Source: a virus. From it: a stretch of DNA of 64,000 nucleotides. A program made the translations under genes and the position numbers. Where the stretch lies: IMG/VR virus record IMGVR_UViG_3300021961_000040, positions 44,075 through 108,074 of that record. One strand, given 5' to 3'. Every line of letters begins with the position of its first letter. Position 1 is the first letter of the stretch. The notes under the pieces were generated by a model, which was not told the origin of the DNA, did no database searches, and saw only the letters and a list, made by a program, of their open reading frames with translations. Of the stretch, positions 43,877 to 64,000 are shown piece by piece.

Positions 43877-44436
43877 GTGTAAAACTCAACAATGATGTGT
43901 TAATATACAAATTACCTAAGTGGAGAAAACAAACTGTATGTCACGTAATGATGATTTGGAAATTGAGTCCGGACCTTATGTTGTGTTGAGCGACGGAAGT
44001 CTTTTTGATGATGCTTTTGAGTGTGAAATCGCTTATATGAGCAGAATTGCCGAAGATGAAGTCTTGATTACACAGAATAGAGGGTGGAAATCGGGTGATG
44101 GGCCAGCTATACATTTTGATGCTGCTGAACCCGACCAAATTTATTCTATTCCTCTTCGAGAAATTATTCGATTTTACTTTGAGAATCACCCAGAAGAGGA
44201 TCCGATGAGATGATTTATACAGCCATCTATTGGAGTACATGCTCTGGTGAGTTTTCTCGGGCAGTTGTTTTTAACGCGTCTTATAATAAAGAAGATGCCT
44301 GGAACATCGCTCTAGAAATGCTGGGTAAACATGAGTGGGAAATGCTCGTTTGTCTTGTTCCGGGCAGCCATGAAACTTGGGCCCCTTGTATGCATTAAGC
44401 CTCACTTAAGTATTAAAATATCAATACGAGGTAAAA

Positions 44437-46401: not shown

Positions 46402-46839
46402 GTGAAACAGTCAGCTGGAATTATTCTTTTAGATGTAAGGCACGACCCGGTAAAAATTCTCTGCCTCAGAGCTTACGCCAACTGGGACTTTCCAAAAGGT
46501 CAACTTGATCCAGGAGAAACTCATCAGCAGGCAGCGTTGCGAGAACTCGAAGAAGAGACCGGATACAACATAGATGATATCCGAATGATCGGAAGTCTTC
46601 TCAATACGCCTGAGTCTGTAACTTATGGTAAGGGTAAAAAACAGAAGACAGCAACGTATTTCTACGCTGTTCTGGAAAACTTTGATAAGGAGCCTTACCT
46701 TCCGATCAATCCTGAACTAGGGAAGCCAGAACATGATGAATGGCGATGGGTTTCTGTGGAAGATCTTCCTGACTTGCTTCCTAAGCGGTTACAGCTTATT
46801 GCACAGAAGCTGAGTGCAAGTTCTCAAAACTCGTATTAA
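46402..46839 (+). CDS. NUDIX hydrolase (Ap4A-hydrolase-like)
   Basis: SAGII, WDFPKG, Nudix box G..DPGE....AALRELEEETG. Confidence 0.9.
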   Translation: MKQSAGIILLDVRHDPVKILCLRAYANWDFPKGQLDPGETHQQAALRELEEETGYNIDDIRMIGSLLNTPESVTYGKGKKQKTATYFYAVLENFDKEPYLPINPELGKPEHDEWRWVSVEDLPDLLPKRLQLIAQKLSASSQNSY

Positions 46840-46867
46840 GATATACACACAATAAAGGAGGTGCTTT

Positions 46868-48079
46868 TTGCATCCAAACATTCGTGAGCTGGTCACGCTT
46901 ATCACGTCCGACATTCGTTCCAACGCTGACAAAAAGGAGAAGTGGGCTGACTTCAAGTGTAACAACGTTGAAGAACTGACTCGCCTGCTCCAGCTTGAAG
47001 GTAAGGGGATGGATAATCCTGGTGCACTCATCGGAATTGACTTCGACGAAGATCGAAAGCTCATGTTGCTTAACTACACAGGTCAGGCACACAACTTCCT
47101 TCACGAGATTGAAGGCGGATGGACTCCCGTTCTGCGGCAGCTTCGTGGTTTGATTGTTGCTTATGATGGCGTGCCTCGAATGGTGTCTCGTGGTTTCGAG
47201 AAGTTCTTCAATTACAACGAGCTCCATGAGTGTTCTGTCGAAGGCTTGTCTGAAAAGTTTGGTGCTGATACAAAGTTTCTTGCACGTGAAAAGGCCGATG
47301 GCCATATGATTGAGTATTTTGTTCACAATGATGAACTCTGTGCTTCGACCCGTGGCAAGTTTGGCACTGCAAGCTCCGATCTTGCAACTGACATGTTCAA
47401 TCTTGAAACATTCAACATCGTTTCTGCTAATGTACCGAACGGCGTCATGTCTATCGTTGTCGAGCTTGTTCATCCTGACACTCGAGTCCATGTTGACTAC
47501 GATAGGTCTCATTTGTTCTTGCTCGCTATTTTTGATAAGGATGGTAATCGGTACAGCAATGAGATTCTTGAATCGCTTTGTGAGCAGCCGGAGTTTTTCT
47601 GCTTTACACCGCCTGCGGCGACAATGATGTCTCTCAACGACATGATTGCTGAAATCAACGATCGTAGTGTCGTTAACAACGAAGGTTGGGTCATGGACTT
47701 CGACGGATACCTTGTCAAGTTCAAGTACATCTCGTACATTGGTGAGATGGTCAAGTCCAAGCTTTCCTACAAATATATCATGAACTGCATGAAGAACGAT
47801 CGTCTCGATAAGATGCTCTTTACTCTGCCCGAAGAGATTCGTGAGGAAGCGTATCGAATGGTTGATGATGTTAAGGCAGCATCTGATCGTGCTATTCGGG
47901 CGGGTACTTATCAGCCACTATACGACTTGTTTAATCCAGACATGGAAGGTTCCAAGGGTTATTTTACTCAGGTTTGTCGGACCTATTGGCACGAGCACGT
48001 GATTCCGAACGGTCTGGATGAGGCTCGCCGAGCTGCGCAGGGTCGACTTCCGGCACTTCCATTTGCATTTGCTGGGTAA
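46868..48079 (+). CDS. RNA ligase, T4 Rnl1-like
   Basis: FEKFFNYNE, EKADG (motif I), STRG, EL, EGWV, VKFK; own promoter at 46814. Confidence 0.85.
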   Translation: MHPNIRELVTLITSDIRSNADKKEKWADFKCNNVEELTRLLQLEGKGMDNPGALIGIDFDEDRKLMLLNYTGQAHNFLHEIEGGWTPVLRQLRGLIVAYDGVPRMVSRGFEKFFNYNELHECSVEGLSEKFGADTKFLAREKADGHMIEYFVHNDELCASTRGKFGTASSDLATDMFNLETFNIVSANVPNGVMSIVVELVHPDTRVHVDYDRSHLFLLAIFDKDGNRYSNEILESLCEQPEFFCFTPPAATMMSLNDMIAEINDRSVVNNEGWVMDFDGYLVKFKYISYIGEMVKSKLSYKYIMNCMKNDRLDKMLFTLPEEIREEAYRMVDDVKAASDRAIRAGTYQPLYDLFNPDMEGSKGYFTQVCRTYWHEHVIPNGLDEARRAAQGRLPALPFAFAG

Positions 48080-49223
48080 CGATTCGAGGAAGATCTTTCT
48101 TTCCAATTAGAAAGTCTAATACTCCGAGCCTTGCAAAAGCAAAGAATGCTAAGACAATTCCGATAATAAGAGATCCGAATATCGAATCGAACATACTTTC
48201 TTTTTCCATGTAAATAAATATTCTTCTCGTATGCAGGTTTGTCACTTGTTTGTTACATGCAGACAATGAATCTCCTTCGTACACCCGCCCTTTTTTAACT
48301 TCCCTCAGATGTCTTCAAATGGCCCTCAAAGACGTTGAACGAGACGGAATAAACACTTGGTTTTGGGAGAATGGAACTTTCTCTTGGAACCAGAATGAAT
48401 ATTTTTGGGATTGGAAGTCAAACAAAGAGGAACAGGAAAAATAATGTGGTTTACTGATTATCCTATCACATCTTTTGGTGATACACCCGGTCAAGAAGCT
48501 CCGAAAAGAAAGGTAAGGATTATCTCTCTTGAAAGACATCCGTATGTTTTAGTAGACATATTTGATGTTGATACAAAAAAGACGATCAGAGAATCTATCA
48601 AGTCATTCTATATCTACATCGAGGAGAACGAAGAATGACACGATTAGTTTTGTTAAGTCTTCTTGTAGGGTGTTCACAGGCAGACTACGACGTGATCGAC
48701 ACAGGTGCATTTGAAGAAGTCGTCTGTTCACACCCAAACTCTCAGTTTGAGGCACAGGTAGAAGTTAACTATCAGGATGAAGATTTCACATCAGTTGAGA
48801 TTATTCTGGGACAGAACGAAGAGTTTTGGATTGCAGATTTGCAGCGCCCAAACGAAGATGTCACAACTTGGCATGCAACAATGCAGATTCTCGAGTTCGA
48901 CTGTTACACAGATTTTACATATAACTTTGTTACTGAGAACTAGGCATGACTGATTTTACGGAATTACTATATTTTTGGCTCATTTTAGGATTTTTAACTA
49001 TTTTTTATAGTATTCAGATTTGGGCTCTTGATTTTCTCTTAGTCAAGCTTAAGAACAAGTTTGATATTGGCAGATTTTTTACTCCGCTTTATCTCTTCAT
49101 TATTTGGGTTTTTGGAGGAGAACTTATTGCCTGGGTTTATCTTTTTACTTGTTTGACAGAATAAAGTGTAAAAGGTACAAAAAAGAGTTAAAATAACTAT
49201 GCCAACAACAAAGGAGGCCAATC

Positions 49224-49679
49224 ATGGCTAAGGCAATTGACAACGCAACTGCTGCTTTGATTTCTAATATTCAGAATGGTGACACGACAGCAAATCAGAT
49301 CTTGGCTACTGAAGCTGTAGGACTCTCTGTTCGTGGCTTTATCGAGCTAGACGACAACGGGGATCTTGCTCTGACTGGTAAGGCATTCCGTGCTCTTCGT
49401 CGCTTCGAGAAGGAAAATGAGATTGATGTCGTAACCGAAGCTGTTCGTGGAGTTATTGACGATATTCTTACTGAGCCTGGTGCAGTTACTCAGCACCGCG
49501 CGGTCTGGAATGCAGTCGGAGGTCCTGATAAGTTTGAGCGGGACATTGTTCTGCAGGCTCTCAATGTTCTAAAGGCTGAGGGCGTTCTCAACAATCATCG
49601 GACTAGCGGCAACAATTTCCAGATTTTCTGGAAGCGTGCTGATGATGTTGCTCCTACTCCTGACTTTGAGGAAAACTGA
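49224..49679 (+). CDS. Hypothetical protein, possibly tandem winged-helix
   Basis: GFIE.....LALTGKA and ALNVLKAEGVL patterns; own promoter at 49166. Confidence 0.5.
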   Translation: MAKAIDNATAALISNIQNGDTTANQILATEAVGLSVRGFIELDDNGDLALTGKAFRALRRFEKENEIDVVTEAVRGVIDDILTEPGAVTQHRAVWNAVGGPDKFERDIVLQALNVLKAEGVLNNHRTSGNNFQIFWKRADDVAPTPDFEEN

Positions 49680-50038
49680 TGAGTCGACACGGCAAAAGGG
49701 GCCATGGCCCTGCTTATATCTTTTTGCTTGGAATGATTGTACTTGTCTCTGTTGGAGTCAGCGAAGGAACAGAGTTTGAAGACACAATTACCGTCGAAAA
49801 GACTTGGACCAAGATGCAATGCGACGGGGACGGAAGTTGTCATGACAAGTATCTTGTCCGAGCTACTTCGGGCGAAGTATTTCAGATCACCGACTCTCTG
49901 TATCGAGCTCAGTTCCGAAGCAGTGATATTTGGTCTGATATGGACCCCGGAGAAACTTTCAAGATCAAGGGCGATGGGTATCGATTCGGCTGTACCAGCT
50001 CTTATCGACGTATCTACAGCGTAGAGGCAGTAAAGTGA
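49679..50038 (+). CDS. Membrane-anchored protein (DUF1523-like)
   Basis: N-terminal TM; KYLV....EVF..TDS...F.SSD....G.R pattern. Confidence 0.55.
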   Translation: MSRHGKRGHGPAYIFLLGMIVLVSVGVSEGTEFEDTITVEKTWTKMQCDGDGSCHDKYLVRATSGEVFQITDSLYRAQFRSSDIWSDMDPGETFKIKGDGYRFGCTSSYRRIYSVEAVK

Positions 50039-50326
50039 TGAAAGAACTTTATTTGGTAGAAGTTGTTAGATTTGGAAATCCAGATTTGGGAGTGCATGTT
50101 TTCGGAGTTTTTGATGAATTTGAAAAGATTGCACCCGCTATGACAGAATACAATGCCCACAGGGGCGGAATATATCCCGAATATTACGTCACTAGCATCG
50201 GTGTCGTAAATCCTACGGATTCTGAGTTTAATAGACGACATGGATATAAAGTTGAATATTAGTGTGTAAATAAATCAAAGATGAGTTAAGATACAAAGGT
50301 AAGGCAGGAAATAAACCTTACAAAAT

Positions 50327-50402
50327 GGGCCTATAGCTCAATTGGCAGAGCATCGGACTCTTAATCCGCAGGTTCCAGGTTCGATTCCTGGTGGGCCCAC
50401 CA
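50327..50402 (+). tRNA. tRNA-Lys(CUU)
   Basis: Cloverleaf; loop CTCTTAA; CCA. Confidence 0.95.
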
Positions 50403-50419
50403 TTTAAAAAATAATCAAA

Positions 50420-50492
50420 GGGGATATAGCTCAGCTGGGAGAGCATCTGCTTTGCACGCAGAAGGTCAAGGGTTCGAATCCCTTTGTCTCCA
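50420..50492 (+). tRNA. tRNA-Ala(UGC), CCA not encoded
   Basis: Cloverleaf; loop TTTGCAC; G3:U70. Confidence 0.93.
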
Positions 50493-50497
50493 CTCTT

Positions 50498-50574
50498 CGG
50501 GGTATAGCGCAGCCTGGCAGCGCATCTGGTTTGGGACCAGAGGGTCGTAGGTTCAAATCCTGCTACCCCGACCA
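50498..50574 (+). tRNA. tRNA-Pro(UGG)
   Basis: Cloverleaf; loop TTTGGGA; CCA. Confidence 0.95.
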
Positions 50575-50596
50575 CTTTATTTGACAAATAAGTTAT

Positions 50597-50681
50597 GACA
50601 CCGTGGCCGAGTGGTTTATGGCAGCAGGCTGTTAACCTGCCGGGTTTCCCATCGTAGGTTCGAATCCTACCGGTGTCGCCA
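50597..50681 (+). tRNA. tRNA-Asn(GUU) with long variable arm
   Basis: Loop CTGTTAA; variable arm CGGGTTTCCCATC; G73; CCA. Confidence 0.88.
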
Positions 50682-51213
50682 CTTTTATTTTTTTCATGTG
50701 TGTATAAACACAACTTTTATATTAAAAAAATAATAAAAAGGAAATCATGTCTGAACTTATTGAGAAAGTCTACATCGATCAAGATCAGTGTGAAGAGTTT
50801 GGGTCTGAATATTTTAATTCGTGTGGGCTAGTTATTTCTTGTCGAGAGCTACGTCACAGCAAGCGATATGATAGTGCGCACACAAAGCTTTTTGATACGT
50901 ACCCAGACAGTATTTTTCATCTCCAGCGAGAAGAGAGAGACGCTCCTGGCTGGTATAGCTGGTCTATTTACATTAACCAAAAGGTTTGAAAAATCACTCT
51001 TATTGGTATAGATAAAACTATGAAAGTAATCAAAACAGACAAAAAACCTGTTGCAATTCCAGATTACTATAAGTTTTACTTGAGCTGGTTGAGCAGAGCA
51101 GAGTTGACAGGTGAGAACCATGCTTACACTGAAGCATTTAGGCTTGCTCGCCTGGCAGAAGAATTTGGCTTGGCTGTCATTGAAGACGACGAAACAATGG
51201 AAGATATGATTTA

Positions 51214-51300
51214 GCCAGCGTGGTGGAATCGGTATACACAGGAGATTCAAAATCTCCCGCTCTTTCGAGCTTGCGAGTTCGAGTCTCGCCGCTGGTACCA
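51214..51300 (+). tRNA. tRNA-Leu(CAA)
   Basis: Loop TTCAAAA; long variable arm; CCA. Confidence 0.95.
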
Positions 51301-51364
51301 TTTTAAAATAAAAAGATTTTGAGTGTAAAAACACAAAATAGGTTATAAGATACAAAAGTAATCA

Positions 51365-51421
51365 AGGAAGCTAACAGCAATCTTTTACTTACCGCAATTC
51401 TACAAGTAAAATGCTTCCTGT
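51365..51421 (+). ncRNA. WACAGCAA structured RNA motif, copy 1
   Basis: AGGAAGC/GCTTCCT stem, TAACAGCAA, inner TTTTACTT/AAGTAAAA stem. Confidence 0.65.
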
Positions 51422-51428
51422 CTTTTTA

Positions 51429-51522
51429 AGGGTAGTTACAGCAACATCCAATCAAATGGAGAGAATTGTCTAACAATTCGCACAGTTTGCAAGAGTTCTG
51501 ACAAACTTGCAACCTACCCTGT
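51429..51522 (+). ncRNA. WACAGCAA structured RNA motif, copy 2
   Basis: AGGGTAG/CTACCCT stem, TTACAGCAA, inner hairpins. Confidence 0.65.
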
Positions 51523-51541
51523 TTATTTTATTGGAGATACG

Positions 51542-53005
51542 ATGTCGAACACATTTCTCAATTCTATGTCAAATAGTGCACAGACTGCAAACGGCGGGGC
51601 AACCAATACTTCTTCTTTGAATAACTGTGTTGATCTGTTCTTCCAGATTGGAAGTATGCGCAGCAATTCCGAAGAGGATATTCTTGTTGCCTGGACTAAG
51701 GCATTTCTAGAAAATCCTCAGACCGCGCTTAAGATCCTGTTTTGGGCCCGCGATGTCCGCCAAGGCGCCGGTGAACGACGAGTGTTTCGGACAATTCTGA
51801 CTCATTTGGCTGAGCGCAATCCTGAGTTGTTTTCGCAGCAACTCATTGCTCAGATTCCTGAGTTTGGGCGATGGGACGATTTGTTCGTGTTTTTTGGAAC
51901 CAAGCTCGAAGGGCGCGCGTCGAACGTTATTGAAAATGCGCTACAGCGTGGCGATGCGCTCTGCGCCAAGTGGATGCCTCGCGAGAAAGGATCAAAGTTA
52001 CACATCGCTCGAGCACTTCGACGCCACATGGGTATGACTCCGAGAGCTTATCGTAAGACGCTTTCTAACTTGACTGCTGTTGTCGAAACGCAGATGTGTA
52101 ATAGCGAGTGGTCTGACATCAACTACTCACATGTTCCTTCTCAAGCTATGCGTATCTACAAAAATGCTTTTCAGCGAAACGCACCCGAGACTTGGGCAGG
52201 ATATCTGTCGCAGATCGCCTCGGGAGAAGCAAAAGTAAATGCTGGTGCCATTCATCCGCACCAGATTCTGGGTCCTTATATTCGTTGTTCGAATAACAGT
52301 GTAGGATATGGATATGGATCGACGACTTACACGACCCATATTGAACCGGTTCCCCAGATTGTTGAAGAGCAGTGGAATGCATTGCCCGACTGGATGGATT
52401 CAAACAAGGGAGGCATCTTGCCTGTTGTTGACACTTCAGGGTCTATGATGGGGCTTCCCATTGAGGTGGCTGTTTCGCTTGGGATTTACATCGCCGAGCG
52501 CACTGTGGGTCCTTTCCAGAATTATTTTATCACCTTCTCTAATCAGCCAAAGATGCAGAAGATGAATGGAGAAACTCTTCATCAGAAGTTGACTTCTGTG
52601 TGCAGCGCCGAGTGGGGTATGTCTACAAACATTGAAGGCACTTTTGAGGCTATTCTGCATCACGCGACCACTAGCGGTGCTGCTAGCGAAGATATGCCTA
52701 AGACGATTCTTATCCTGTCGGACATGGAGTTTAATGCTGCAGCAAACATTAACGAGACTGCAATGCAGTCGATTCGTCGGCAGTACAACGAGGCCGGATT
52801 CGATCTGCCTAACATCGTTTTCTGGAACCTGAATGCTCGGCTGGGCAACGTTCCTGTGCGCTTCGACGAGCAGGGCACGGCTTTAGTTTCTGGATTCTCT
52901 CCGACTATCATGAAGTCAATTCTGAGTGCTGACAACTTTACCGCTGAAAGCATTATGCGTTTGACGATTGACTCTGAACGATACAATAACATCACTTTTG
53001 ACTAA
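51542..53005 (+). CDS. TROVE/Ro60-related helical-repeat plus vWA protein (DUF2828-like)
   Basis: RDVRQGAGER, GRWDD, AKWMPRE, VE..MC, VPS.AM; MIDAS DTSGS...T...SD; FWN, SGFS. Confidence 0.82.
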   Translation: MSNTFLNSMSNSAQTANGGATNTSSLNNCVDLFFQIGSMRSNSEEDILVAWTKAFLENPQTALKILFWARDVRQGAGERRVFRTILTHLAERNPELFSQQLIAQIPEFGRWDDLFVFFGTKLEGRASNVIENALQRGDALCAKWMPREKGSKLHIARALRRHMGMTPRAYRKTLSNLTAVVETQMCNSEWSDINYSHVPSQAMRIYKNAFQRNAPETWAGYLSQIASGEAKVNAGAIHPHQILGPYIRCSNNSVGYGYGSTTYTTHIEPVPQIVEEQWNALPDWMDSNKGGILPVVDTSGSMMGLPIEVAVSLGIYIAERTVGPFQNYFITFSNQPKMQKMNGETLHQKLTSVCSAEWGMSTNIEGTFEAILHHATTSGAASEDMPKTILILSDMEFNAAANINETAMQSIRRQYNEAGFDLPNIVFWNLNARLGNVPVRFDEQGTALVSGFSPTIMKSILSADNFTAESIMRLTIDSERYNNITFD

Positions 53006-53644
53006 GGAAAATAAAATGGCAACTTATCTAGAAAAAGGTACAAAGGTACTTCTCAGCCAGCGAGGACATAAAGGATTTTTCTATCCAGACCCAGAAGTCT
53101 GGGAGACGACTGCAGTTCGTTCACAAGTTATTCCTCAGACTTGGCTAGGTTCAGACATGTCTGCTGTTCTGATTTCAGAAGATGCTATCTACGGAACTGG
53201 TCGCGAAGATCGCTTGATTCCTGTCTGGGTAGAAAAGTCAGATCTGATTGAGGCATAATAGTGATTAAAAAGGCACAAGTAGTACCGGGAGCTCGGGCAA
53301 GAGTAAAAAAGTCTAAGTCTTCTTCTGGCTTTTCCTTTTGGCCACTAATTGATAACCACTCTGAAATTGGTGATCAGTGGTCAAACTTAGGCGTCGTGCT
53401 TAAACCCGGTACTACATTCACAATCCTGTCAGAGCCTTTTAAAGCAAGTGGTGTGTCAGGTCTTTTTGTAAATATTCAAATTGACGGCTTAGATGAGCTT
53501 AGTCAAACTTTTTATGTCGATGTTTATCGACGTGCGGAGTTGATTTAAAAAATAAAATCTCACCTTTGAGTGTAAATGAAGCAAAGGTGAGTTAAGATAT
53601 AAAGGTAAGGCAGGAAACAAGGGGAAACAAACCTTACGTGATAA

Positions 53645-53928
53645 GCCTCGATAGTTCAATGGATAGAACACCGGCCTTCAAATAGGAGCCTCATATCGGA
53701 AACGATATGTTGCATACACTCTCAAATTCGGGGAAGCCTTTAAAATGGTAATCCCGAGCCAAGCCCGAAAGGGAAGGTGTAGAGACTTGACGGGAGTGGC
53801 CTAAAAGAATCAATTGATTCTCATGGTTGAGAGAAAGTCCAGACCACAAACAACTTCGGTTGGCAGCGAAAGCTGTAGAGGGTACGCTAAGCCGTAGGTT
53901 CCAGGTTCGAGTCCTGGTCGAGGCGCCA
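53645..53928 (+). tRNA. tRNA-Arg(UCU) interrupted by a group I intron (exons 53645-53678 and 53887-53928)
   Basis: Joined exons form a cloverleaf with loop CTT|CTAA, acceptor GCCTCGA/TCGAGGC, and GCCA end. Confidence 0.88.
53679..53886 (+). mobile_element. Group I intron (IC3-like), 208 nt, no ORF
   Basis: P AAATTCGGGGAA, Q AATCCCGAGC, R GTAGAGACTTGA, S GAGAAAGTCC; exon ends in U paired with G in P1; terminal G. Confidence 0.9.
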
Positions 53929-54114
53929 TTTTAAAAAGTACTACAAGCTCTCGAAAGAGTAAGCGTCCGGATTAAGCTCCCGGAGGGGCAATGTTTGTGG
54001 GTCGACAAGAGGCACTTGTTATCTCTTTTAAAATAAAAAATCTTTTGAGTGTAAATGAAGCAAAGGTGAGTTAAGATATAAAGGTAAGGCGGGAAACAAA
54101 CCTTACCAAAACAC

Positions 54115-54192
54115 GCACTCTTAGCTCAGTTGGATTAGAGCAGCGGGTTTCTACCCCGCAGGTCGTAGGTTCGAGTCCTACAGAGTGTGCCA
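54115..54192 (+). tRNA. tRNA-Arg(UCU), intronless
   Basis: Cloverleaf; loop TTTCTAC; CCA. Confidence 0.93.
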
Positions 54193-54198
54193 CTTTTT

Positions 54199-54277
54199 GG
54201 GGTGGTAGCTCAATTTGGTTAGAGCACCTGTCTCATAAACAGGCGGTTTGTGGGTTCAAGTCCCACCCACCCTACCA
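54199..54277 (+). tRNA. tRNA(CAU), elongator Met or Ile2, copy 1
   Basis: Loop CTCATAA; no initiator features; CCA. Confidence 0.9.
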
Positions 54278-54281
54278 TTTT

Positions 54282-54345
54282 AGGATGCTAACAGCAAACT
54301 TTTACAAGATATTACCACGAAAATAACAATGTAAATGCATCCTGT
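54282..54345 (+). ncRNA. WACAGCAA structured RNA motif, copy 3
   Basis: AGGATGC/GCATCCT stem, TAACAGCAA, inner TTTACA/TGTAAA stem. Confidence 0.65.
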
Positions 54346-54405
54346 TTTTTAAAATTGTTAGTAATAAAAGAAAAATTTCCTGAGTGTTGTTATACTTATG
54401 TATAC

Positions 54406-54491
54406 GGGGCGATGGCGGAATGGTAGACGCGCGGGCCTTAAAAGCCTGTTCTTGTAAGAGAGTGTGGGTTCGAGTCCCATTCGCCCTACCA
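54406..54491 (+). tRNA. tRNA-Leu(UAA)
   Basis: Loop CTTAAAA; long variable arm; CCA. Confidence 0.93.
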
Positions 54492-54505
54492 CTTAGGAGA
54501 TTTTT

Positions 54506-54949
54506 ATGTATAGTAAGAAAAAAGTATCTGACGAAGAGATAATCGAGGCATGTAACAGTTCTCAATCTATGGCCGCGGCGGCATCGAAAGTTGGTTTACA
54601 TTACAACACTTTTCGAGGCCGTGCAAAAAAGATCGGCTGCTATAGTCCTAATCAAGGCGGGAAAGGAAAAACAAAAAAGCGTGTGCCTGTTTACAGATTG
54701 TCAGATATTTTAGAAGGAAAAGTTCCACATTATCAGACTTATAAGTTAGGCCGCCGGATCATAAAGGAAGGTATTTTAACTTATGAGTGTAAAATATGTG
54801 GAATATCAGAGTGGGAAGGTACTAAGCTCAGTCTAGAGCTTGATCATATAGACGGAAATAGCAGAAATCATCGTTTAGAAAACTTACGATGGTTATGCCC
54901 AAACTGCCACTCACAAACACCTTCTTTTAGAAGTAAAAAAAGAACTTAA
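54506..54949 (+). CDS. HNH homing endonuclease with N-terminal HTH
   Basis: C..CG...W.G..L.LELDHIDGN..N..LENLR.LCPNCH. Confidence 0.92.
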   Translation: MYSKKKVSDEEIIEACNSSQSMAAAASKVGLHYNTFRGRAKKIGCYSPNQGGKGKTKKRVPVYRLSDILEGKVPHYQTYKLGRRIIKEGILTYECKICGISEWEGTKLSLELDHIDGNSRNHRLENLRWLCPNCHSQTPSFRSKKRT

Positions 54950-55028
54950 CAATAAAATACTTTGAGTGTAAATACCTTAAAGTTGTGCTAAAATAATAAA
55001 GGTAAGGAAAAGGCAAAACCTAAAATAA

Positions 55029-55107
55029 GGGGTGGTAGCTCAATTTGGTTAGAGCACCTGTCTCATAAACAGGCGGTTTGTGGGTTCAAGTCCCACCCAC
55101 CCTACCA
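55029..55107 (+). tRNA. tRNA(CAU), copy 2 (identical to 54199-54277)
   Basis: Exact repeat. Confidence 0.9.
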
Positions 55108-55217
55108 TTTCAAAATCCTGTTACTTGGGAAGGTTGCCGTTTAGGCTGTAAAACCGCGAGGAATCTATCCTTTTACCAGCAGGTGCCGCGTCGCACCGGT
55201 TAAAGTGTGCTACTTAT

Positions 55218-55291
55218 TGGGGTGTCGTTCAAAGGCAGGACCTTGGTTTTTGGCACCAATGATGGGGGTTCGAATCCCTCCACCCCAGCCA
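55218..55291 (+). tRNA. tRNA-Gln(UUG), copy 1
   Basis: U1:A72; loop TTTTGGC; GCCA end. Confidence 0.92.
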
Positions 55292-55883
55292 GTTACATTA
55301 CAAGAGTAAGGAGAGAATCAATATGTCGTATTGTATCCACATTATTGTTGCGCAATATAAGCATATTTCACACGGTACTGCCGAGTCTTATCTCACAACT
55401 CGCGTCATTCAGGATTATAACTTTGAGATTATGTCTTTTGGTTCTCGCGAAGAAGCAGAAGAATACCTCAAAGAAGGGATCTACGACGAAATTTGGGGCT
55501 ATGACGTGAAGGGGTATGAGATCAGAGAGTTTGTTCCGTTTGGCAACACCCCGGAACTGAACATTTCGAGGGCGTCTATATCTAAGTCAGACAATAAAAC
55601 CACTTGACAGCCCACGATCGTCGGGTCACATTACAAGAGTATGGAGAACGAAGAATGATTGTCTATGTTGTCTTTGAACACGAACGACACGAAGGGAGCA
55701 GGATTGCTGCTATCTTTGATTCAGAAGAAAAGGCAGAAGATTACATTCACAACCATTATCCAGATGATGACTCTGTTTTCTGGCTTGAATGGGAAGAGTA
55801 CAGAGTTCAGTAAAAAACTTAATGATATACTTTGAGTGCAAATACCTCAAAGTTGTGCTAAAATAATAAAGCAAGGAGATACA

Positions 55884-55988
55884 ATGCGAAACGTTATTAT
55901 GATGGCAGCTGCAATGCTCGTAGCATGTGGCGACAAGGAGAGCGATTCTGCTTCCGATACTGCGGTCGCTGAAGATACCGCAGAGTGA
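55884..55988 (+). CDS. 34-aa lipoprotein MRNVIMMAAAMLVACGDKESDSASDTAVAEDTAE
   Basis: Promoter at 55836, SD AAGGAG, LVAC lipobox; too short for the ORF track. Confidence 0.7.
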   Translation: MRNVIMMAAAMLVACGDKESDSASDTAVAEDTAE

Positions 55989-55996
55989 ATCAAAAC

Positions 55997-56107
55997 TGAA
56001 GCGCGGCGAGAGCACGCAGGGTTCTACTGACAATATACGACCCGGTAAGGAATAAGAGTCTAAAAGGAATACTTACCAATTTGCAGGTGAAAATCCTGTC
56101 GCTTCAA
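55997..56107 (+). ncRNA. tRNA-like RNA with aberrant anticodon and extra arms
   Basis: Perfect 7-bp acceptor TGAAGCG/CGCTTCA plus A; T-arm GCAGG-TGAAAAT-CCTGT; three internal stems. Confidence 0.65.
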
Positions 56108-56492
56108 TACAGGTGTGCAAAAATACTTTGGTACTACTATAAGCCGCGCAATGAGCGGACGTAGCGCATGGGACGCAGACTGATCCACTGCACTGTAAAA
56201 ACGGATTACCGCTGGCACACCGTTTAAAGTGTGCTCCTTATGCTCACCGCCAACATAGGGCCCGAGTAGGTACAGGGAACTGGCTTCAGCGCTAATGCTG
56301 ACTAAGATGCTCCAGTAACGGAAACAACGCTCACCCGTGAGCGGGTCATGCTAATGATGTTGGAAAATGTAGTACCAGAAGTGATGACAGGGTGGGCGTC
56401 CCGTCTGCGTCAGACTTGGTGTCGGAAGGTGAACGCCGCCTCTGACTTTAACTACAAACCCGCTAGCACACCGGTTAAAGTGTGCTACTTAT

Positions 56493-56566
56493 TGGGGTGT
56501 CGTTCAAAGGCAGGACCTTGGTTTTTGGCACCAATGATGGGGGTTCGAATCCCTCCACCCCAGCCA
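56493..56566 (+). tRNA. tRNA-Gln(UUG), copy 2 (identical to copy 1)
   Basis: Exact repeat including the upstream hairpin and leader. Confidence 0.92.
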
Positions 56567-56592
56567 CTTTAAAATAAACACAAGGAGGAACC

Positions 56593-57102
56593 ATGACTTA
56601 CGAATACAAGGTCTCTCACCGAGCCGATGGCTCGGTGGAGTTGGAGGAGTTCTTCAAGGAGGGTCTCCGTCACCGGGAGGGTGACCGACCGGCGTGGGTC
56701 CGTTACCGAGCCGATGGCTCGGTGGAGTTGGAGTCGTTCTGGAAGGAGGGTCAGCGTCACCGGGAGGGTGACCGACCGGCTGTGGTCCGTTACCGAGCCG
56801 ATGGCTCGGTGGAGTGGGAGGAGTTCTGGAAGGAGGGCCTCCTTCACCGGGAGGGTGACCTCCCGGCTGTGGTCCGGTATCGAGCCGATGGCACGGTGGC
56901 GTGGGAGTCGTTCTGGAAGGAGGGTCAGCTTCACCGGGAGGGTGACCGACCGGCTGTGGTCCGGTATCGAGCCGATGGCTCGGTGGAGCGGGAGCTGTTC
57001 TACAAGGAGAATCAGACGTACACTCCGAGCAAGGCAAAGCCTTACGAGGGCAAGACCGTGGAGATTGACGGCGTCAAGTACGTCTTGACGCCTGTGGATT
57101 GA
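56593..57102 (+). CDS. 27-aa tandem-repeat (MORN-variant-like HREGDRPA) protein, copy 1
   Basis: 81-nt repeats; SD AAGGAGG. Confidence 0.85.
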   Translation: MTYEYKVSHRADGSVELEEFFKEGLRHREGDRPAWVRYRADGSVELESFWKEGQRHREGDRPAVVRYRADGSVEWEEFWKEGLLHREGDLPAVVRYRADGTVAWESFWKEGQLHREGDRPAVVRYRADGSVERELFYKENQTYTPSKAKPYEGKTVEIDGVKYVLTPVD

Positions 57103-57932
57103 GTGCAAACTCTTTCAAAGTAAGATAAAATACTTTCACAAGGAGGAACAATGTTCAATACAAATCGTGAAACGGCTTTTGATATTCTTGAAGAGTTGAG
57201 GATGTATGCTGTCTCTGATGAGAAGATTCTCGACTACATCGTAGGAAACAATCTACCAGCACATATCGCACTTCAGATGATGCGTGATGCTCGTGACGAG
57301 TTTCTTTCAGAGCTTAATGATTACGAGGATGAATAGATGACGTTGAATATCCCGCAGCTTTTTCTAATTGGTTGGTCTGTGCTTGCTGTATGTGTAAACA
57401 TTTACAAAGACGGCCAACCTAAAACTTCAAAGGAAAACTTTTATATTCATTCTGCCTGTTGGCTGTTTGAAGTATGTATTCTTGGTACGACTGAATTTTT
57501 TAGTAGTTTTGGTTTTGCACAAAGTATTTGGGGCCTGCTTTCTGTAATCGGCCTTATTAGTGCTGCTAAAAATCACGGCCAGATTCCAACAGGTGCCTTT
57601 TATCAAGGACTTCAGTCCGTGGCGTCGTTTTTCATTGCAATGACTATTTACTATTTCGGTGGATTCTTTAACTAGGGAGAAAATATGAGCATGAAGAATA
57701 TTGATATTTTTGACAACTACTATGACTACGACGACAGTGAGTTTCCAAAGCTTGTAACTTGGTCCTCTCCTGAAGACGGGCAAGGCCGCTCTCGAATCAT
57801 TCGAGATGAGCGGGAGTCCGACGAGTTCTTTTCCTGGTTTAGACGGAAGTACCCGGAGGTCTCTGTTACAATCAAGTAACAACCGAGCGCGAGACATCTT
57901 ACGCTACGCGCGCACGCGCGCGGGGAGGTAAA

Positions 57933-58550
57933 ATGATTAAGAATAGCTTGACTGAAATCGAATATCTTTGTCTGCGAATGATGCTGAACCCGGGCCGGAC
58001 CACTACTTTTTATGCTAAGCATGCTCGCATGTACCGGAATCCTTTTCGGTGGCAGAAAAACTCTAGCAAGAATCTAATCTGCTGGGATCAAATGATAACC
58101 AAAAGTATTCTGACTAATAGAACTGACTATTTTATCGATGCACAAATTAGAGATTTGGGCCCGAAAGAAAAGTCTCGGTGGTTTTTGACGTCTAAAGGAT
58201 TAAGTGAGGCAATCAATGCTGCAAGAGTTATCGGTATTGAGTCGGAAAAGGTAGTGTCAACTGCCCCTCCTGCTCTAACTTTTACAAGGCAGCTTTTGAT
58301 GAAGATGATCGAAGAAGGAGGCATGACTCGCGCGGATGCTAAAGCATATTATGACCAGATTTCAAACGCGAGTCCTCATCACTCTTCGTTGAGGCTTACG
58401 AGGATTATTCGAACTTATTGCACGACTCACGACTGCAGGACTTCGCAAGCCACTGGAAGAGATTCTATCTGGTGCAAGGTCGACGCAAAAATCTTGTGCA
58501 GCATGCTGAGCGAGAATACTTATTCTACTGACAGCACTCTCGTGCATTGA
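57933..58550 (+). CDS. Hypothetical protein, paralog of 60223-60567, possibly winged-helix
   Basis: Shared L..IEYL......NPGR....Y and LTS.G...A..A...IG. Confidence 0.55.
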   Translation: MIKNSLTEIEYLCLRMMLNPGRTTTFYAKHARMYRNPFRWQKNSSKNLICWDQMITKSILTNRTDYFIDAQIRDLGPKEKSRWFLTSKGLSEAINAARVIGIESEKVVSTAPPALTFTRQLLMKMIEEGGMTRADAKAYYDQISNASPHHSSLRLTRIIRTYCTTHDCRTSQATGRDSIWCKVDAKILCSMLSENTYSTDSTLVH

Positions 58551-59664
58551 GTGCAAACTCATATTCAACGTGTTATAATATTCTCACGAGGTGATTATGG
58601 AAATCAAAATCGGTCAAACTGTTTTCCTAAAACATAATCGATTTGCATGCAATCGAACAAAGAATCGTATTCGTGAGCACGGGTCCAAGGGCTTCGTTAT
58701 CCAGAAGTTTGTTCCGGGCTGCGGGCTGTTTGACGGCTGTCCGGCTATTCTGTTCAATTCCGTTACTGCATTTTCGAGCGACGGAGCAGGTGGAAAAGAG
58801 CCTTGGATGGATTGGTTGCCAGTTGACGAAATTGAAATGTCTGAAGGAGCTTGATGATGGAAAACTTGCTTGAACTTTTTGAAAATGTAACCGATGTGAT
58901 GTATCAACTAGGGATTGACCCGCGAGACGTCTTAGCAGGACTTCCTGAAGCAGAAGAGCAGGCGGCCGCTGTTCGAGTTGTCGGTGCACACCAGCCAAAC
59001 TATCCTCTTGCTGAAAATATCAGCGGGCTTGTGCTTCTACCTTCAGATGACGATGATGAAGTTGATGAAGACGACTACGACTACGATGAAATTGATTTGA
59101 GTGGAGATAAGAATCTGATCTGTTGGCTGGTTCTAAATGGCCACCCGAGTGATCTAAGTCCTTATGCTCCGCGCAGTTGTTTTAACTTTTACTAGACCTG
59201 AATATTCTCAAATAAACTCAAGGAGAGAAAAATGAACGGAAACACTTGTTACTTCTACCACAACGGAACTTACCGAACCACCATTGCATACCGGCGCAAT
59301 TCTGACGGGTCTGTCTCTTACGGTGCTTCTTTCTGTCGGCCATCCGATCAGTTTACAAAGGCCCGTGGGCGAAAGATTGCTGAAGGGCGGATGGATCAGA
59401 TGATTCCGACTATTGTGAATGCTCCTTCTGAGCGTTGGGCCCTTCACGAGGAGATTCTTTGTCGACTTGAGGCTCAGGAGTTTGGGTATGTCCCGTCCTG
59501 CTTCCGAAGCTAAGTACTACTGTCGTTTTTGCGGATGTAAGGCATACAGCCCGCAGTGGCTTTGGTCTCATCGGTGTCCAAAGTGCGGTACAACCGTTCC
59601 GCCAAAAAAGTTTTGAGTGCAAACCCTCATTCACTGTGATAAGATAAAGAGGTAAGGAGGAACC

Positions 59665-60174
59665 ATGACTTACGAATACAAGGTCTCTCACCGAGCCGAT
59701 GGCTCGGTGGCGTCGGAGCAGTTCTACAAGGAGGGTCTCCGTCACCGGGAGGGTGACCGCCCGGCTGTGGTCATGTACCGAGCCGATGGCTCGGTGGAGT
59801 GGGAGGAGTTCTTCAAGGAGGGTCTCCGTCACCGGGAGGGTGACCGACCGGGACGGGTCAGTTACCGATCCGATGGCTCGGTGGAGTGGGAGGAGTTCTG
59901 GAAGGAGGATGAGCTTCACCGGGAGGGTGACCGACCGGCTATGGTCTGGTATCAAACCGATGGCTCGGTGGAGACGGAGGCGTTCTACAAGGAGGGTCAG
60001 TGTCACCGGGAGGGTGACCGACCGGCGTGGGTCCGTTACCAAGCCGATGGCTCGGTGGCGTGGGAGGAGTTCTGGAAGGAGGATGAGCAGTACACTCCAA
60101 GCAAGGCAAAGCCTTGCGAGGGCAAGACCGTGGAGATTGACGGCGTCAAGTATGTCTTGACGCCTGTGGATTGA
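59665..60174 (+). CDS. 27-aa tandem-repeat protein, copy 2
   Basis: Same length and termini as copy 1; promoter at 59617. Confidence 0.85.
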   Translation: MTYEYKVSHRADGSVASEQFYKEGLRHREGDRPAVVMYRADGSVEWEEFFKEGLRHREGDRPGRVSYRSDGSVEWEEFWKEDELHREGDRPAMVWYQTDGSVETEAFYKEGQCHREGDRPAWVRYQADGSVAWEEFWKEDEQYTPSKAKPCEGKTVEIDGVKYVLTPVD

Positions 60175-60222
60175 GTGCAAACCCTCATTCAATGTGATAA
60201 AATACTCTCATAAGGAGGAACA

Positions 60223-60567
60223 ATGATTAATCCTAAAACTGCTCTTTCTGGTATCGAATATCTTCTTGTCTGTATTCAGGCAAATCCTGGTCGTAGTCAG
60301 CGGTACTATTTGCGCCGACTGTACGAGTACAAGCACAATTCGATCGATCCTCACAGTGGTGCCACAAACTGTGGTTACTTCACCAACCCGAGATATCGCG
60401 GTCGTCTATTCGAAGATGCAGCACCTAAGAACTCTCGCGGCCGCATTTGGCTTGGATGGAAGCCGAAGGCACACACTTCACAGATGCATTTGACTTCTGC
60501 TGGAAATCGACGTGCCAACGAAGCAAGAGTAAAGATTGGTTTGCCTGCCATTCCTTTCATCAAGTGA
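60223..60567 (+). CDS. Hypothetical protein, paralog of 57933-58550
   Basis: See paralog; promoter at 60175 and SD AAGGAGG. Confidence 0.6.
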   Translation: MINPKTALSGIEYLLVCIQANPGRSQRYYLRRLYEYKHNSIDPHSGATNCGYFTNPRYRGRLFEDAAPKNSRGRIWLGWKPKAHTSQMHLTSAGNRRANEARVKIGLPAIPFIK

Positions 60568-62997
60568 GCTGTCTTATGAATCTTGAAGTCACGCGATCTG
60601 AGCTGTCGATTATTATCAACGCTCTTGATGTTTATGCACAGCGTCTATCAGATGAAGTTGTATGGACCGGAGATCCTGAGTCTGAAGAAGATCTCGATGC
60701 TATTCGGATTCTTGATGCCAAGATTAAGGATCTTTTGGTGACTAACGATGATAACCCAGCGTCACATCGATGTTGAGTGCAAACTCACACTCATAATGAT
60801 AAAATAATCCCACAAGGAGGCAGCATGCCAACATCTGACTACATGTACGACGACGAGATCGAGTACGAAGTCAACAACCGTGATTCTGGATACGTTGACG
60901 TCTGGGAAACTGTTCCTGTTGATGAGCAAGATTCCGGAGCCAATGACGAAGGCTACGGATACGAGAACTGCTACGAGTGTGGTCGCATTACAGAGCACGA
61001 TGACTGCGGAAACTGCCTCGAGCACGATTACTACCTCTAAGGAGACGACATGAAGTACACCATCCGAAAGTTTGATGGGGACGACAGCTATAGCTGGGCG
61101 GTCTTCAAGAAGTCTGATCTTCCCAAGGGACATCGAGGAATCGTGTTCTGGGGTGAAGCCCGGCCGATTGTCAGTGGTTGCAGTCGATACCAGGCAAGTA
61201 GCTACAAGAAGTCGTTGGAGAACGAAGAATGAAAGTCTACGGAACCAGTTACTTCCCGACTCGGTCGGACGTCTATCGATACTACAGTGCTCAGCACTAC
61301 AGCGGAGACGCAATTAAGTACGTGCTCGACCAGGGTGGTGTCCATATTGGCAAGCCACCCAAGGTGAGCCCGAGTGACAAGATTCTTCTCAAGTCTGACG
61401 TCGGTGGCTCGCGTCGCTATCACATCGAGGTGATTGCATGAAATGGTTTGAGCAGATCAAGAAAGCAATCGAAGCTTTGGAATGGATTTAGTTTGAGTGC
61501 AAACTCGCGCTTACAGTGATAAGATAACACCATAAAGGAGACCAATCATGGCAATGACTACACGAAAGAAGTCCGCTCACCTGCGAAAGCTCGGCTTTCA
61601 GAAGGCTCGGATGCAGCTTACTCGAGTCGGAACCACCTACATGCGTGGAAGCACGTCTGTTACCATCGTCAAGGGTGACCAGGGAGGTGGTAACTTTATT
61701 GCAGTGACCCCCGGTCAGGGGTCTTTTAACTCTGGTCTGCTTCACATCGGAAACACGGCCGCAGGCATGAAGCAATCGATTCGAGTTTACCGCGATCATG
61801 GCGTTGACCTGCCTGACCCGGATGATGCTGACTTCGGCATGACCGACTGGAATGATCGTCTATTCGTCGGTATCACTGAAGCTCTTCCGTAGGACTGACA
61901 GATTAATGTCTTCAGATGCACAAACCGTCGCCAAGCTTCTCAGTGGGCCTCAGTATAACTGGGTCGGCGAAGAGCGAGACAACTACTGTATTTCTTACAC
62001 AAACAACTCGTCCATCGGCAATCGATACATCAACTGGCATGGGCTCTGGGCTTACAAGTCAATTGAAGAAGAGAAGCCTCCCAAGGGGTCTGTTGTCGAC
62101 ACAGAAAGTGCACACGATCTTATCAGAGAATACGACTGGCGTTGTGTGTTTGCGTTTATCGAGCATGGAATCTTCGTTGGCCCAGCAACGCAAGAAGCCC
62201 TACTTAACTGTATCAAATTGATCGAAAATACCGAGCTTCCTGAAGAAGGGGCTCAAAAGTTTCGAGTGTGGAATGGTATGACTTATGTCTATGTAACTAA
62301 GCACACTCAAAAGACGTGGGAACTTCAAGACAGGGTCCGTCAGCACATGCTTGAAGGGTTTAGGGCAGATCGCGATGAAAAGAAACTACTTTCCAATGAC
62401 TGGGTCTATATGACTCACAGACATAGCGGATGGAGCCGAAGCTGCTGATGGATACACACACATACAAAGATTGCAGAAGAAAAGAGTTTTGTCGAATTGT
62501 GTTTTCTGATTCGTGGAGAAGTTTTTCTCAAGGCGACTATTTTGACACAAATAACTCTGATGACATTAGTGTAATTCCGGGTGTCCCTGACATGTATTAC
62601 GTCCAAAATCTTGGATATGTCCCGAGAGCTGTTGTAAAAGAAGTTCAGATTATTGAAAAGACGATTACGACAACTACGATAGAGACACTTCAAGTTATTG
62701 ATACGATGAGTTTTATTGCTTGAGATTGAGTGCAAACTCACTCAAAATAAGATATAATATTCTCACCAACCCCACCAAGAGGTGAAACATGGAAAGCTTT
62801 TGGACAGAGATTTATGCAGCAATCTACCACGCTACTTGCGATAAATGCGGGAAGTCTGGTAACGGGTGGTTTTACATTCTTGACGGAAGTCATGATAACG
62901 GAACGGTCTGTTCTGATTGTCATTCCTGCTTGACTAAATTGCGCTTGAGTGCAAACTTACAACAAGTATGGTAAAATATCTCCACAAGGAGGAAGAT

Positions 62998-63711
62998 ATG
63001 ACTATCAAACTTTTTGAAGTGGGTGGTTCCATTCGGGACGAGCTCATGGGTCTGGAGTCTGCAGATCGCGACTTCTGTGCAGTGTCGCCCAAGGGTTGGG
63101 AGTCTCTTCTCAGCTGGGCAAACAACAAGATGCTTGTCTTCAAGGTCACACCTGAGTTTTTCACGATTCGTGGTTCGCTCGGCCCAGATATCATTGACAT
63201 CGTCATGTGTCGAAAGGACGGCGCTTCGAGTGACGGTCGCCACCCTGACGAGGTGGAACCCGGAACTTTGCTTGATGACCTCGCTCGTCGAGATTTCACT
63301 TGCAACGCACTGGCCCGTCCGGTCAATCGGAATCTCGAGATCATCGGCGAGATTGTCGACCCTTTTGGCGGAGCTGAAGATATTCAGCATCGTCGCTTGG
63401 TCTCGGTCGGAAATGGTCAGGCTCGATTCGAAGAGGACAATTTGCGTCTGCTTCGTGCCGTTCGATTCTCATTGACTAAGTCCATGACGCCCTCTAACGA
63501 TCTTGCGCACATGATTTCTGATCCTCGCAACTGGCAACAGATGATGTCCACTGTTTCTATCGAGCGTGTTCGAGAGGAAATGAACAAGATGTTTGTTTTT
63601 TCCACGGCAGGCACACTTCGATTCATGAACATGCATTTGCCCCGAATTGCTTTCGATGCGCTGTTCGAAGACACGGGCTTGTGGCTCAAGCCGACGCTGG
63701 CAAGGCGCTGA
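62998..63711 (+). CDS. CCA-adding/poly(A) polymerase-family nucleotidyltransferase (short form)
   Basis: VGGSIRD..MG...DRDF, DLARRDFT.NALA, DPFGG..DI, RF.ED.LR.LRAVRF, S.ER..EE. Confidence 0.9.
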   Translation: MTIKLFEVGGSIRDELMGLESADRDFCAVSPKGWESLLSWANNKMLVFKVTPEFFTIRGSLGPDIIDIVMCRKDGASSDGRHPDEVEPGTLLDDLARRDFTCNALARPVNRNLEIIGEIVDPFGGAEDIQHRRLVSVGNGQARFEEDNLRLLRAVRFSLTKSMTPSNDLAHMISDPRNWQQMMSTVSIERVREEMNKMFVFSTAGTLRFMNMHLPRIAFDALFEDTGLWLKPTLARR

Positions 63712-63759
63712 GTGCAAACTCACTCAAAATAAGATAAAATACTCTCTTAAGGAGGAATA

Positions 63760-64000
63760 ATGACTTACGAATACAAGGTCTCTCACCGAGACGATGGCTC
63801 GGTGGTGTGGGAGCAGTTCTACAAGGAGGGTCTCCGTCACCGGGAGGGTGACCGCCCGGCTGTGGTCATGTATCGAGCCGATGGCTCGGTGGGGGAGGAG
63901 GAGTTCTTCAAGGAGGGCCTCCTTCACCGGGAGGGTGACCGACCGGGACGGGTCCGTTACCGATCCGATGGCTCGGTGGAGTTGGAGGAGTTCTGGAAGG
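63760..64000 (+). CDS. 27-aa tandem-repeat protein, copy 3 (truncated by window end)
   Basis: Starts MTYEYKVSHR like copies 1 and 2; promoter at 63712. Confidence 0.85.
   Translation, partial: MTYEYKVSHRDDGSVVWEQFYKEGLRHREGDRPAVVMYRADGSVGEEEFFKEGLLHREGDRPGRVRYRSDGSVELEEFWK

Follow-up and report, generated by a model that had tools for sequence, protein, structure and literature searches.

A diversifying family of phage repeat genes with hypervariable codons at fixed positions on a MORN-type beta-hairpin scaffold

Introduction

At the end of a 64,000-nucleotide (nt) stretch of viral DNA (IMG/VR record IMGVR_UViG_3300021961_000040, positions 44,075 to 108,074; hereafter the window), three closely related genes encode tandem repeat proteins whose coding DNA is nearly invariant, even at silent sites, except at a handful of codons that differ from one repeat unit to the next. 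The window forms the terminal 64 kb of one viral contig of 108,074 bp with a CheckV completeness of about 48 %, which is a fragment of the genome of an uncultured large tailed phage, and the end of the contig falls inside the third repeat gene. Which forces shape such genes, what their products may do for the phage and whether the conspicuous palindromes of the repeat DNA have any part in it are the questions raised by this locus.

The pattern itself is real and statistically solid: at eight positions of the repeat unit, units and paralogs are shown to diversify by non-synonymous change faster than at silent sites. We propose that the three copies belong to a phage multigene family of small, presumably cytoplasmic repeat proteins, in which 29-residue units would be stacked between a fixed N-cap and a 27-residue C-tail, and that diversifying selection together with recombination among units and paralogs would drive the evolution of this family. 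Taken by itself, this evolutionary description is highly probable; combined with the more general reading of the proteins as putative intracellular binder scaffolds, with a contact surface that may be formed by the variable residues (many of them W, R, S, Y, E, and Q), we place it at a probability of roughly 0.6.

Architecture of the repeat genes

The original prediction had described three paralogous genes starting at 56593, 59665, and 63760 that resemble each other at their N-termini and, in the case of copies 1 and 2, also in C-terminus and length. This description holds: the N-terminus MTYEYKVSHR, encoded behind a strong Shine-Dalgarno sequence, is common to all three copies, while the C-terminal 27 residues and the length of 169 amino acids (aa) are common to copies 1 and 2 (Table 1). 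The unit of 81 nt or 27 aa given at the same time was wrong, as Tandem Repeats Finder (period 87, 4.5 copies) and the register taken from the translation yield 87 nt or 29 aa. The genes are indeed far richer in guanine and cytosine than the genome around them, with a GC content of 0.61–0.62 (0.74–0.76 at third codon positions, GC3) as compared to 0.381 for the contig and 0.45 for the 11 kb surrounding the repeat genes. A profile search of the contig retrieved no unit-like genes beyond copies 1–3. The longest exact repeat within the window genes measures 63 nt, and 2 % of the 51-mers in the three genes are non-unique. Assemblies of the window phage (at 64000) and of several relatives (L003, L012, L014–L018) stop inside repeat genes; the repeat family itself accounts for this tendency of the assemblies to end there, and three is hence the minimum number of copies in the genome of the window phage.

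Hypervariable codons and selection

For a codon table, 88 distinct full units were cut from 31 genes of the window and its metagenome relatives, with a register beginning at the Tyr or His that precedes R-A-D-G-S-V. Eight positions per unit (8, 9, 11, 13, 17, 18, 27, and 29) are hypervariable, with an amino-acid entropy of 1.35–2.9 bits and residues dominated by W, R, S, Y, E, Q, V, and L, whereas most framework codons are near-fixed including their third bases (for example, GTG in 85, GAG in 87, TTC in 87, GAC in 87, and CGG in 84 of the 88 units). The variable codons noted in the original prediction lie at the places it had named, and within the window their third base is mostly G. When substitutions were counted by site class according to Nei and Gojobori, the ratio of non-synonymous to synonymous rates (dN/dS) was 3.8 at hypervariable and 0.27 at framework sites for the window units, and 3.2 and 0.20, respectively, for the high-GC clade, the hypervariable values being inflated by the choice of these sites after their variation was known. 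The predicted diversification at fixed positions with a dN/dS above 1 is thus borne out (3.2–3.8 against 0.20–0.27). Inside the hypervariable codons themselves, per-site non-synonymous diversity amounts to 2.4–2.9 times the synonymous one. Copy 3 is nearest to copy 2: of the 80 codons compared, 10 differ, eight of them through a non-synonymous change, and seven fall on hypervariable positions.

Comparison between strains leads in the same direction. At the metagenome locus L002, the flank downstream of copy 1 is 99.3 % identical to the window (4 differences in 564 nt), and two tandem 169-aa genes occupy the site of the single window gene, with 87.8 % and 88.4 % identity to copy 1. Their hypervariable codons carry 24 non-synonymous changes versus one synonymous change in the former gene and 19 versus one in the latter; in the 87.8 % gene, hypervariable codons make up 25 of the 45 that differ, as compared to an expected share of 22 % (p = 1.6e-6).

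An explanation without positive selection would hold that the family was amplified recently, that the eight positions represent an unconstrained surface drifting neutrally, and that the framework is uniform through its youth. Single-layer sheets tolerate surface changes, the silent divergence of the framework between lineages (high-GC versus the L005 and L008 clades) is ordinary, and selecting sites after the fact raises dN/dS, all of which would suit such a scenario. Neutral drift does not, however, predict the hypervariable-codon excess, because non-synonymous diversity exceeds synonymous diversity within the very same codons. Moreover, drift would lead one to expect about 3 non-synonymous changes to 1 synonymous change, against the 43 to 2 counted in the two L002 comparisons, and the variable residues are skewed towards W, R, S, Y, E, and Q. 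We therefore consider purely neutral change unlikely and retain diversifying selection as the preferred explanation.

Recombination among units and paralogs

At a second locus, L013, the flank following copy 2 is 98.6 % identical to the window, while the gene itself is 84.3 % identical and has three units versus five. In such near-identical strains, framework silent differences within the gene number 9–13 per about 130 codons, roughly ten times the divergence of the flanks, and in-place point mutation alone therefore cannot explain these alleles. Instead, they have largely been exchanged with diverged units, with paralogs, or with (co-infecting) relatives by recombination or gene conversion. 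Framework DNA is near-uniform among the units and paralogs of a lineage, and at codons 5, 6, and 14 each lineage has silent variants of its own that are uniform within it, which points to concerted evolution. A test modelled on the pairwise homoplasy index (PHI) gave p = 0.008 for the high-GC-clade units and p = 0.05 for the 169-aa genes, and the nearest neighbours of the N-terminal and C-terminal halves differ in the window units. The eight-residue variable word is unique in each of the 57 high-GC-clade units, and in this clade its three sub-blocks combine almost independently. In addition, both the number of units (2 to 7) and the number of genes vary between closely related phages. Mosaicism and population-level variation, as anticipated in the original prediction, are hence apparent from the L002 and L013 strain pairs, the PHI-like tests and the half-unit neighbours, and the three sub-blocks that it had quoted do recur between the paralogs.

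Fixed hypervariable codons in a phage gene call to mind diversity-generating retroelements, in which a template repeat is reverse-transcribed into the variable units with errors at adenines, so that AAG and GAG codons would become NNG and GNG codons (N, any base). Retroelements of this kind leave an AAY-to-NNY pattern (Y, pyrimidine), which the codon pattern of the window resembles, as its variable codons change bases 1 and 2 and keep base 3. However, neither a reverse transcriptase nor a template repeat, both proposed as a check, was found on the 108-kb contig: there is no match to RVT_1 (PF00078) at E ≤ 1 in this contig of about 48 % completeness, the unit motifs all lie inside the three genes with no non-coding template copy on the contig, and ORF (open reading frame) inspection at related loci revealed no frame of reverse-transcriptase size beside the genes. 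Since both components are missing from the contig, a retroelement is unlikely, and the variation itself speaks a different language: many framework adenines (codons 10, 14, 15, 21, and 23) are invariant, unlike silent sites other than adenines, and changes in the number of units and genes are foreign to such elements. About half of the genome is missing from the contig, which leaves the retroelement a small chance, and we regard this mechanism as the least probable of those considered here. Recombination among units, paralogs, or relatives remains the preferred source of new alleles.

Palindromes in the repeat DNA

Both palindromes reported for the repeat unit exist: ACCGAGCC-GAT-GGCTCGGT is perfect in five units, and GTCACC-GGGAG-GGTGAC is perfect in six, with a 5-bp core in ten. 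A third one lies inside the conserved C-terminal coding part (Table 1); in the L005/L010 lineage (loci considered: L005, L010, and L017), its stem is kept by a V>I change together with a T>M change, a single event, and a G-T intermediate is present on one contig. Conceivably, the nucleic acid rather than the protein could be the selected object, with the palindromes acting as recombination, replication-pausing, or RNA-processing signals, which would account for both the silent conservation and the high GC content. The three perfect palindromes per gene fit such a view, as do the one compensatory double change that preserves the C-terminal 9-bp stem and the copy 1 mRNA, which is more strongly folded than dinucleotide shuffles (z = −5.15). 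Likewise, perfect stems are commoner than in synonymous recodings drawn from the genes' own codon pool (p = 0.025 for the best stem, p = 0.003 for the number of stems), albeit with a moderate over-representation that is inflated, as these stem counts tally the YRADGSV palindrome twice.

When measured against synonymous recodings, however, the folding energy is ordinary (z = −0.96). For the two unit palindromes, 86 % of cells are paired across the 88 units, and their covariation is no better than in shuffles (283 of 500 reach it), with a change on both sides in only 3 of 1232 cells. Silent changes at paired sites go uncompensated (for example, AGA with TCA, which creates an A-A mismatch), and in low-GC lineages the first stem gains a mismatch and a wobble pair. 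The suggestion that the hairpins act as recombination signals thus finds no support, because the unit stems lack covariation and are broken in the low-GC lineage. Most simply, the palindromes and the GC richness are properties of the ancestral unit that have been copied along; that they act as recombination or RNA signals is conceivable, yet lacks support, and selection on the nucleic acid as the explanation of the whole pattern appears distinctly unlikely. In a related scenario, the locus would be a diversity generator that works without reverse transcriptase, in which the uniform, palindrome-rich framework DNA provides built-in homology as well as pausing or cleavage sites that drive frequent sub-unit exchange between units and paralogs and thereby yield, from the eight variable residues of each unit, a combinatorial library of binders against host defence or toxin proteins. 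We consider this improbable as well, to about the same degree as neutral drift.

Fold and candidate function

The canonical MORN repeat is a 23-residue beta-hairpin that serves as a protein–protein interaction module (PMC7725318). An AlphaFold (AF2) model built on the family alignment consists entirely of beta-hairpins, with an overall predicted local distance difference test (pLDDT) score of 84.8, a predicted template modelling (pTM) score of 0.75, confident repeats, and a less confident C-tail (pLDDT 54–60). Its best structural match is the single-layer sheet of OspA (Z 9.0), followed by extended sheet domains of GtfA and TarM (Z about 8), MORN4 (Z 7.9, 19 % identity), junctophilin (Z 6.5), and axonemal MORN proteins; these Z values are in the range common for the tool and therefore support the fold class, not a function. 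MORN4, MORN1, and junctophilin also appear among the Foldseek matches, and an Atlas model aligns with a cluster of the YwqK family at a template modelling (TM) score of 0.82. At the sequence level, 13 of 32 family members match Pfam MORN_2 (PF07661) at E ≤ 0.01 (best 3.9e-8), and copy 1 reaches 17.6 bits (E = 0.0042) against a gathering cut-off of 29.6. The repeat length typical of MORN-type proteins (22–23 residues) is exceeded by the 29 residues found here, and relatives with units of 28–29 aa are common. The predicted structure is a MORN-variant or YwqK-like sheet of beta-hairpins in which both hairpin arms are longer, and the family assignment made in the original prediction is upheld by the MORN_2, MORN4, and YwqK matches alike. 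A PDB sequence search returned no meaningful match (best E = 0.15). Pfam DUF5122, Mago-bind, and Cro gave short motif matches with no stretch passing alone and were not used.

In the strand assignment of the model, variable positions alternate along the two arms of the long hairpin and also occur in the short third strand. Because they alternate along the arms of a single-layer sheet, they must, if the model is right, be solvent-exposed. Alternatively, the proteins could bind polymers such as cell-wall glycan or teichoic acid, or be part of the virion, and work much like the hairpin repeats of choline-binding proteins and CROP domains. Position 13 is mostly aromatic, aromatic residues are also frequent at positions 9, 27, and 29, and choline-binding proteins, the CROPs of TcdA/TcdB, and glucan-binding domains are indeed among the weak Foldseek matches. 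The latter, however, have TM scores of 0.14–0.2 and low probability, and MORN4 and OspA align better. Neither a signal peptide nor a membrane segment was seen in the copies when the translations were inspected by eye, and the genes lie among tRNAs and small accessory ORFs with promoter-like motifs of their own, not in a structural module. Polymer binding or a virion role is thus quite unlikely, somewhat more so than selection on the nucleic acid.

We favour, by comparison, a reading of the proteins as intracellular binders. Several separate copies, two of them behind a promoter-like motif of their own, may be kept in order to follow variable host targets. By analogy to YwqK-type immunity proteins, host defence or toxin proteins would be the most plausible of these, although a specific anti-defence or anti-toxin target is a tentative suggestion that we hold to be possible rather than probable. 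No toxin-like gene is apparent in the window or at related loci, where ORFs were assessed by inspection alone.

Several points weigh against the binder reading and the evolutionary description on which it builds. PADLOC and NCBIfam gave no usable match, and thus no direct evidence for the anti-defence or antitoxin mimicry suggested in the original prediction, and no function emerged from PHROG. Apart from the after-the-fact choice of hypervariable sites, the unit comparisons are paralogous and involve recombining sequences, which renders a tree-based site test unreliable, and the PHI-like test was non-significant for all 88 units taken together and for the 111-aa genes. Furthermore, all relatives are short-read metagenome contigs, many of which end inside repeat genes, so that assembly artefacts or chimeras could account in part for unit order, unit number, and mosaicism.

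Expression signals and genomic setting

A promoter-like motif, consisting of TGAGTGYAAA, about 17 nt, GATAAAATA, and then a Shine-Dalgarno sequence, occurs 19 times versus 0.6 times expected, on the plus strand only and between window positions 38334 and 63718. It precedes copies 2 and 3 (Table 1) and was missed by a standard sigma-70 scan. The motif would split the region of tRNAs and small ORFs into separately promoted cassettes. Copy 1 lacks such a motif and may share a transcript with the tRNA-Gln(UUG) gene upstream of it. Early expression, as put forward in the original prediction, could be suggested from this repeated motif, its sole basis.

Table 1. Coordinates of the repeat genes and associated features in the window.
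Feature	Position	Strand	Details
Copy 1	56593-57102	+	169 aa; ORF, translation, Tandem Repeats Finder period 87
Parts of copy 1	56617-56964 (full units)		8-residue N-cap, four full 29-aa units, fifth half-unit, conserved 27-residue C-terminal tail
Copy 2	59665-60174	+	169 aa; architecture as copy 1; full units 59689-60036
Copy 3	63760-64000	+	first 80 codons only; units from 63784; contig ends within gene
Third palindrome, copy 1	57070-57092	+	9-bp stem, 5-nt loop; inside conserved C-terminal coding part
Third palindrome, copy 2	60142-60164	+	9-bp stem, 5-nt loop; inside conserved C-terminal coding part
Promoter-like motif before copy 2	59613-59664	+	TTGAGTGCAAAC ... GATAAGATA, with Shine-Dalgarno AAGGAGGAA; repeat family D4
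Promoter-like motif before copy 3	63708-63759	+	same motif, with Shine-Dalgarno
tRNA-Gln(UUG)	56493-56566	+	26 nt upstream of copy 1; ARAGORN

Around the repeat genes lie tRNAs, a tRNA nucleotidyltransferase, and small ORFs that match no family, and the window harbours 13 tRNA genes in total. The tRNA-Gln(UUG) gene and its upstream sequence are present in duplicate (55194–55294 and 56469–56569, 99 % identity), as is a tRNA-Met (54199–54289 and 55029–55119, 96 % identity), which suggests recent segmental duplication within the cassette region. Two ORFs to which no function was assigned, one directly downstream of copy 2 (60223–60567) and the other about 830 nt downstream of copy 1 (57933–58550), have a 34-residue N-terminal motif in common (35 % identity, E = 1e-5). 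Repeat genes and adjoining genes may have been duplicated jointly.

Further genes of the contig encode an ATP-dependent DNA ligase, topoisomerase II subunits, an RNA ligase, an HNH nuclease, the tRNA nucleotidyltransferase, a Ro/TROVE-like protein, and a helicase that shares only 30–36 % identity with its counterparts in cultured jumbo phages. With the three repeat genes excluded, the GC content rises from 0.37 (window positions 1–46000) to 0.46 (46001–64000), and the accessory region thus differs in composition from the replication module. The ORF at 42252–43304 matches phrog_1211, the family of PurZ-type adenylosuccinate synthetases (E = 2e-72), which hints that the phage may use 2-aminoadenine in place of adenine.

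Relatives and distribution

A protein search returned 117 relatives of similar length, most of them 111 aa long (three units), and both termini are common to the closest 35. In metagenomes, 36 loci were detected, about 20 of which are close relatives; the 31 genes from which units were cut are located on 19 contigs and have 2 to 7 units each, often as two or three genes in tandem with about 50 nt between them. The repeat type as such is widespread (7,745 cluster representatives at E ≤ 1e-3), with many long proteins that also have ankyrin repeats or membrane segments, while the form with these particular N- and C-termini was found in metagenome contigs only. Megablast and tblastn searches against 50,697 phage records matched neither the locus nor the protein. 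The only bacterial matches in a genome collection, in Isosphaeraceae and Promicromonospora, are about 40 % identical, and an alignment-based scan of viral contigs retrieved only distant relatives with 23-aa units.

Some relatives depart from the common architecture. In one gene (L011:2061-3398, also P0127), the 29-residue units are joined to an N-terminal domain (about 200 residues) that contains membrane segments, and the C-tail is absent. Two others (L004:92-661 and L006:919-1539) have independent frameshifts just upstream of the conserved C-tail that lead into the same alternative frame; these members may be pseudogenes or reflect sequencing errors. Relatives with 23-residue repeats reside on viral contigs of 353 kb and 213 kb (L021, L023, L040–L050), and a contig of giant-virus size carries many tandem paralogs of a 23-residue repeat (HREGDQPA core) that follows a conserved N-terminal domain.

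Comparison with known systems

The closest known family is MORN_2 (PF07661), including YwqK (COG2849), which has tandem beta-hairpin units, an elongated sheet, and a W-K-x-G-x-x-H-R-x-G core in common with the phage proteins, and some of the relatives are labelled as YwqK antitoxin by JGI. In contrast, the phage unit has 29 residues instead of 22–23, both arms of its hairpin being longer, the window proteins stay under the Pfam cut-off and have no toxin gene beside them, and YwqK is not known to have the conserved N-cap and C-tail, the uniformity at the DNA level or hypervariable positions at fixed sites. The giant-virus MORN-type families (units of 23 aa with HREGDQPA) resemble the phage family in a repeat core that is 45–50 % identical and in their many tandem paralogs (on a 353-kb contig), whereas their 23-aa units come after a long conserved N-terminal domain and lack a C-tail. 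A literature search yielded no description of a phage family in which a MORN-type hairpin scaffold carries hypervariable residues at fixed sites.

With respect to the mode of variation, the variable proteins of retroelements such as Mtd of Bordetella phage BPP-1 are likewise encoded by phage genes with fixed hypervariable codons that change mainly at bases 1 and 2. They differ in their C-type lectin fold, as opposed to a repeat array, and in variation limited to adenines, which the phage family described here does not display. Transcription activator-like (TAL) effectors are likewise encoded by tandem repeats of almost the same DNA sequence, with nearly all variation confined to a few fixed codons and a number of repeats that changes by recombination, as in the phage genes. 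TAL effectors are genes of plant pathogens and have a helical fold and two variable positions, compared to beta-hairpins and eight positions in the phage family, for which there is no evidence of nucleic-acid binding; the likeness is one of analogy only. Ankyrin repeats and DARPins, the variable lymphocyte receptors of lampreys, and engineered OspA sheets similarly combine a conserved framework with fixed variable repeat positions. The phage family, unlike these binder scaffolds, combines natural origin with a MORN-like scaffold, and no somatic assembly mechanism was seen.

Repeat proteins with fixed hypervariable positions underlie recognition systems as different as TAL effectors, lamprey receptors, and designed ankyrin binders. 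Should host defence or toxin proteins indeed be the targets of the phage proteins, the family would be the sign of a rapid arms race in an uncultured estuarine and marine large phage, and would offer a small (111–169 aa) all-beta scaffold with naturally defined variable positions. A repeat family with fixed hypervariable positions and concerted evolution is, in itself, of a known kind; its occurrence in a phage and on a MORN-type scaffold with long hairpins appears to be new.

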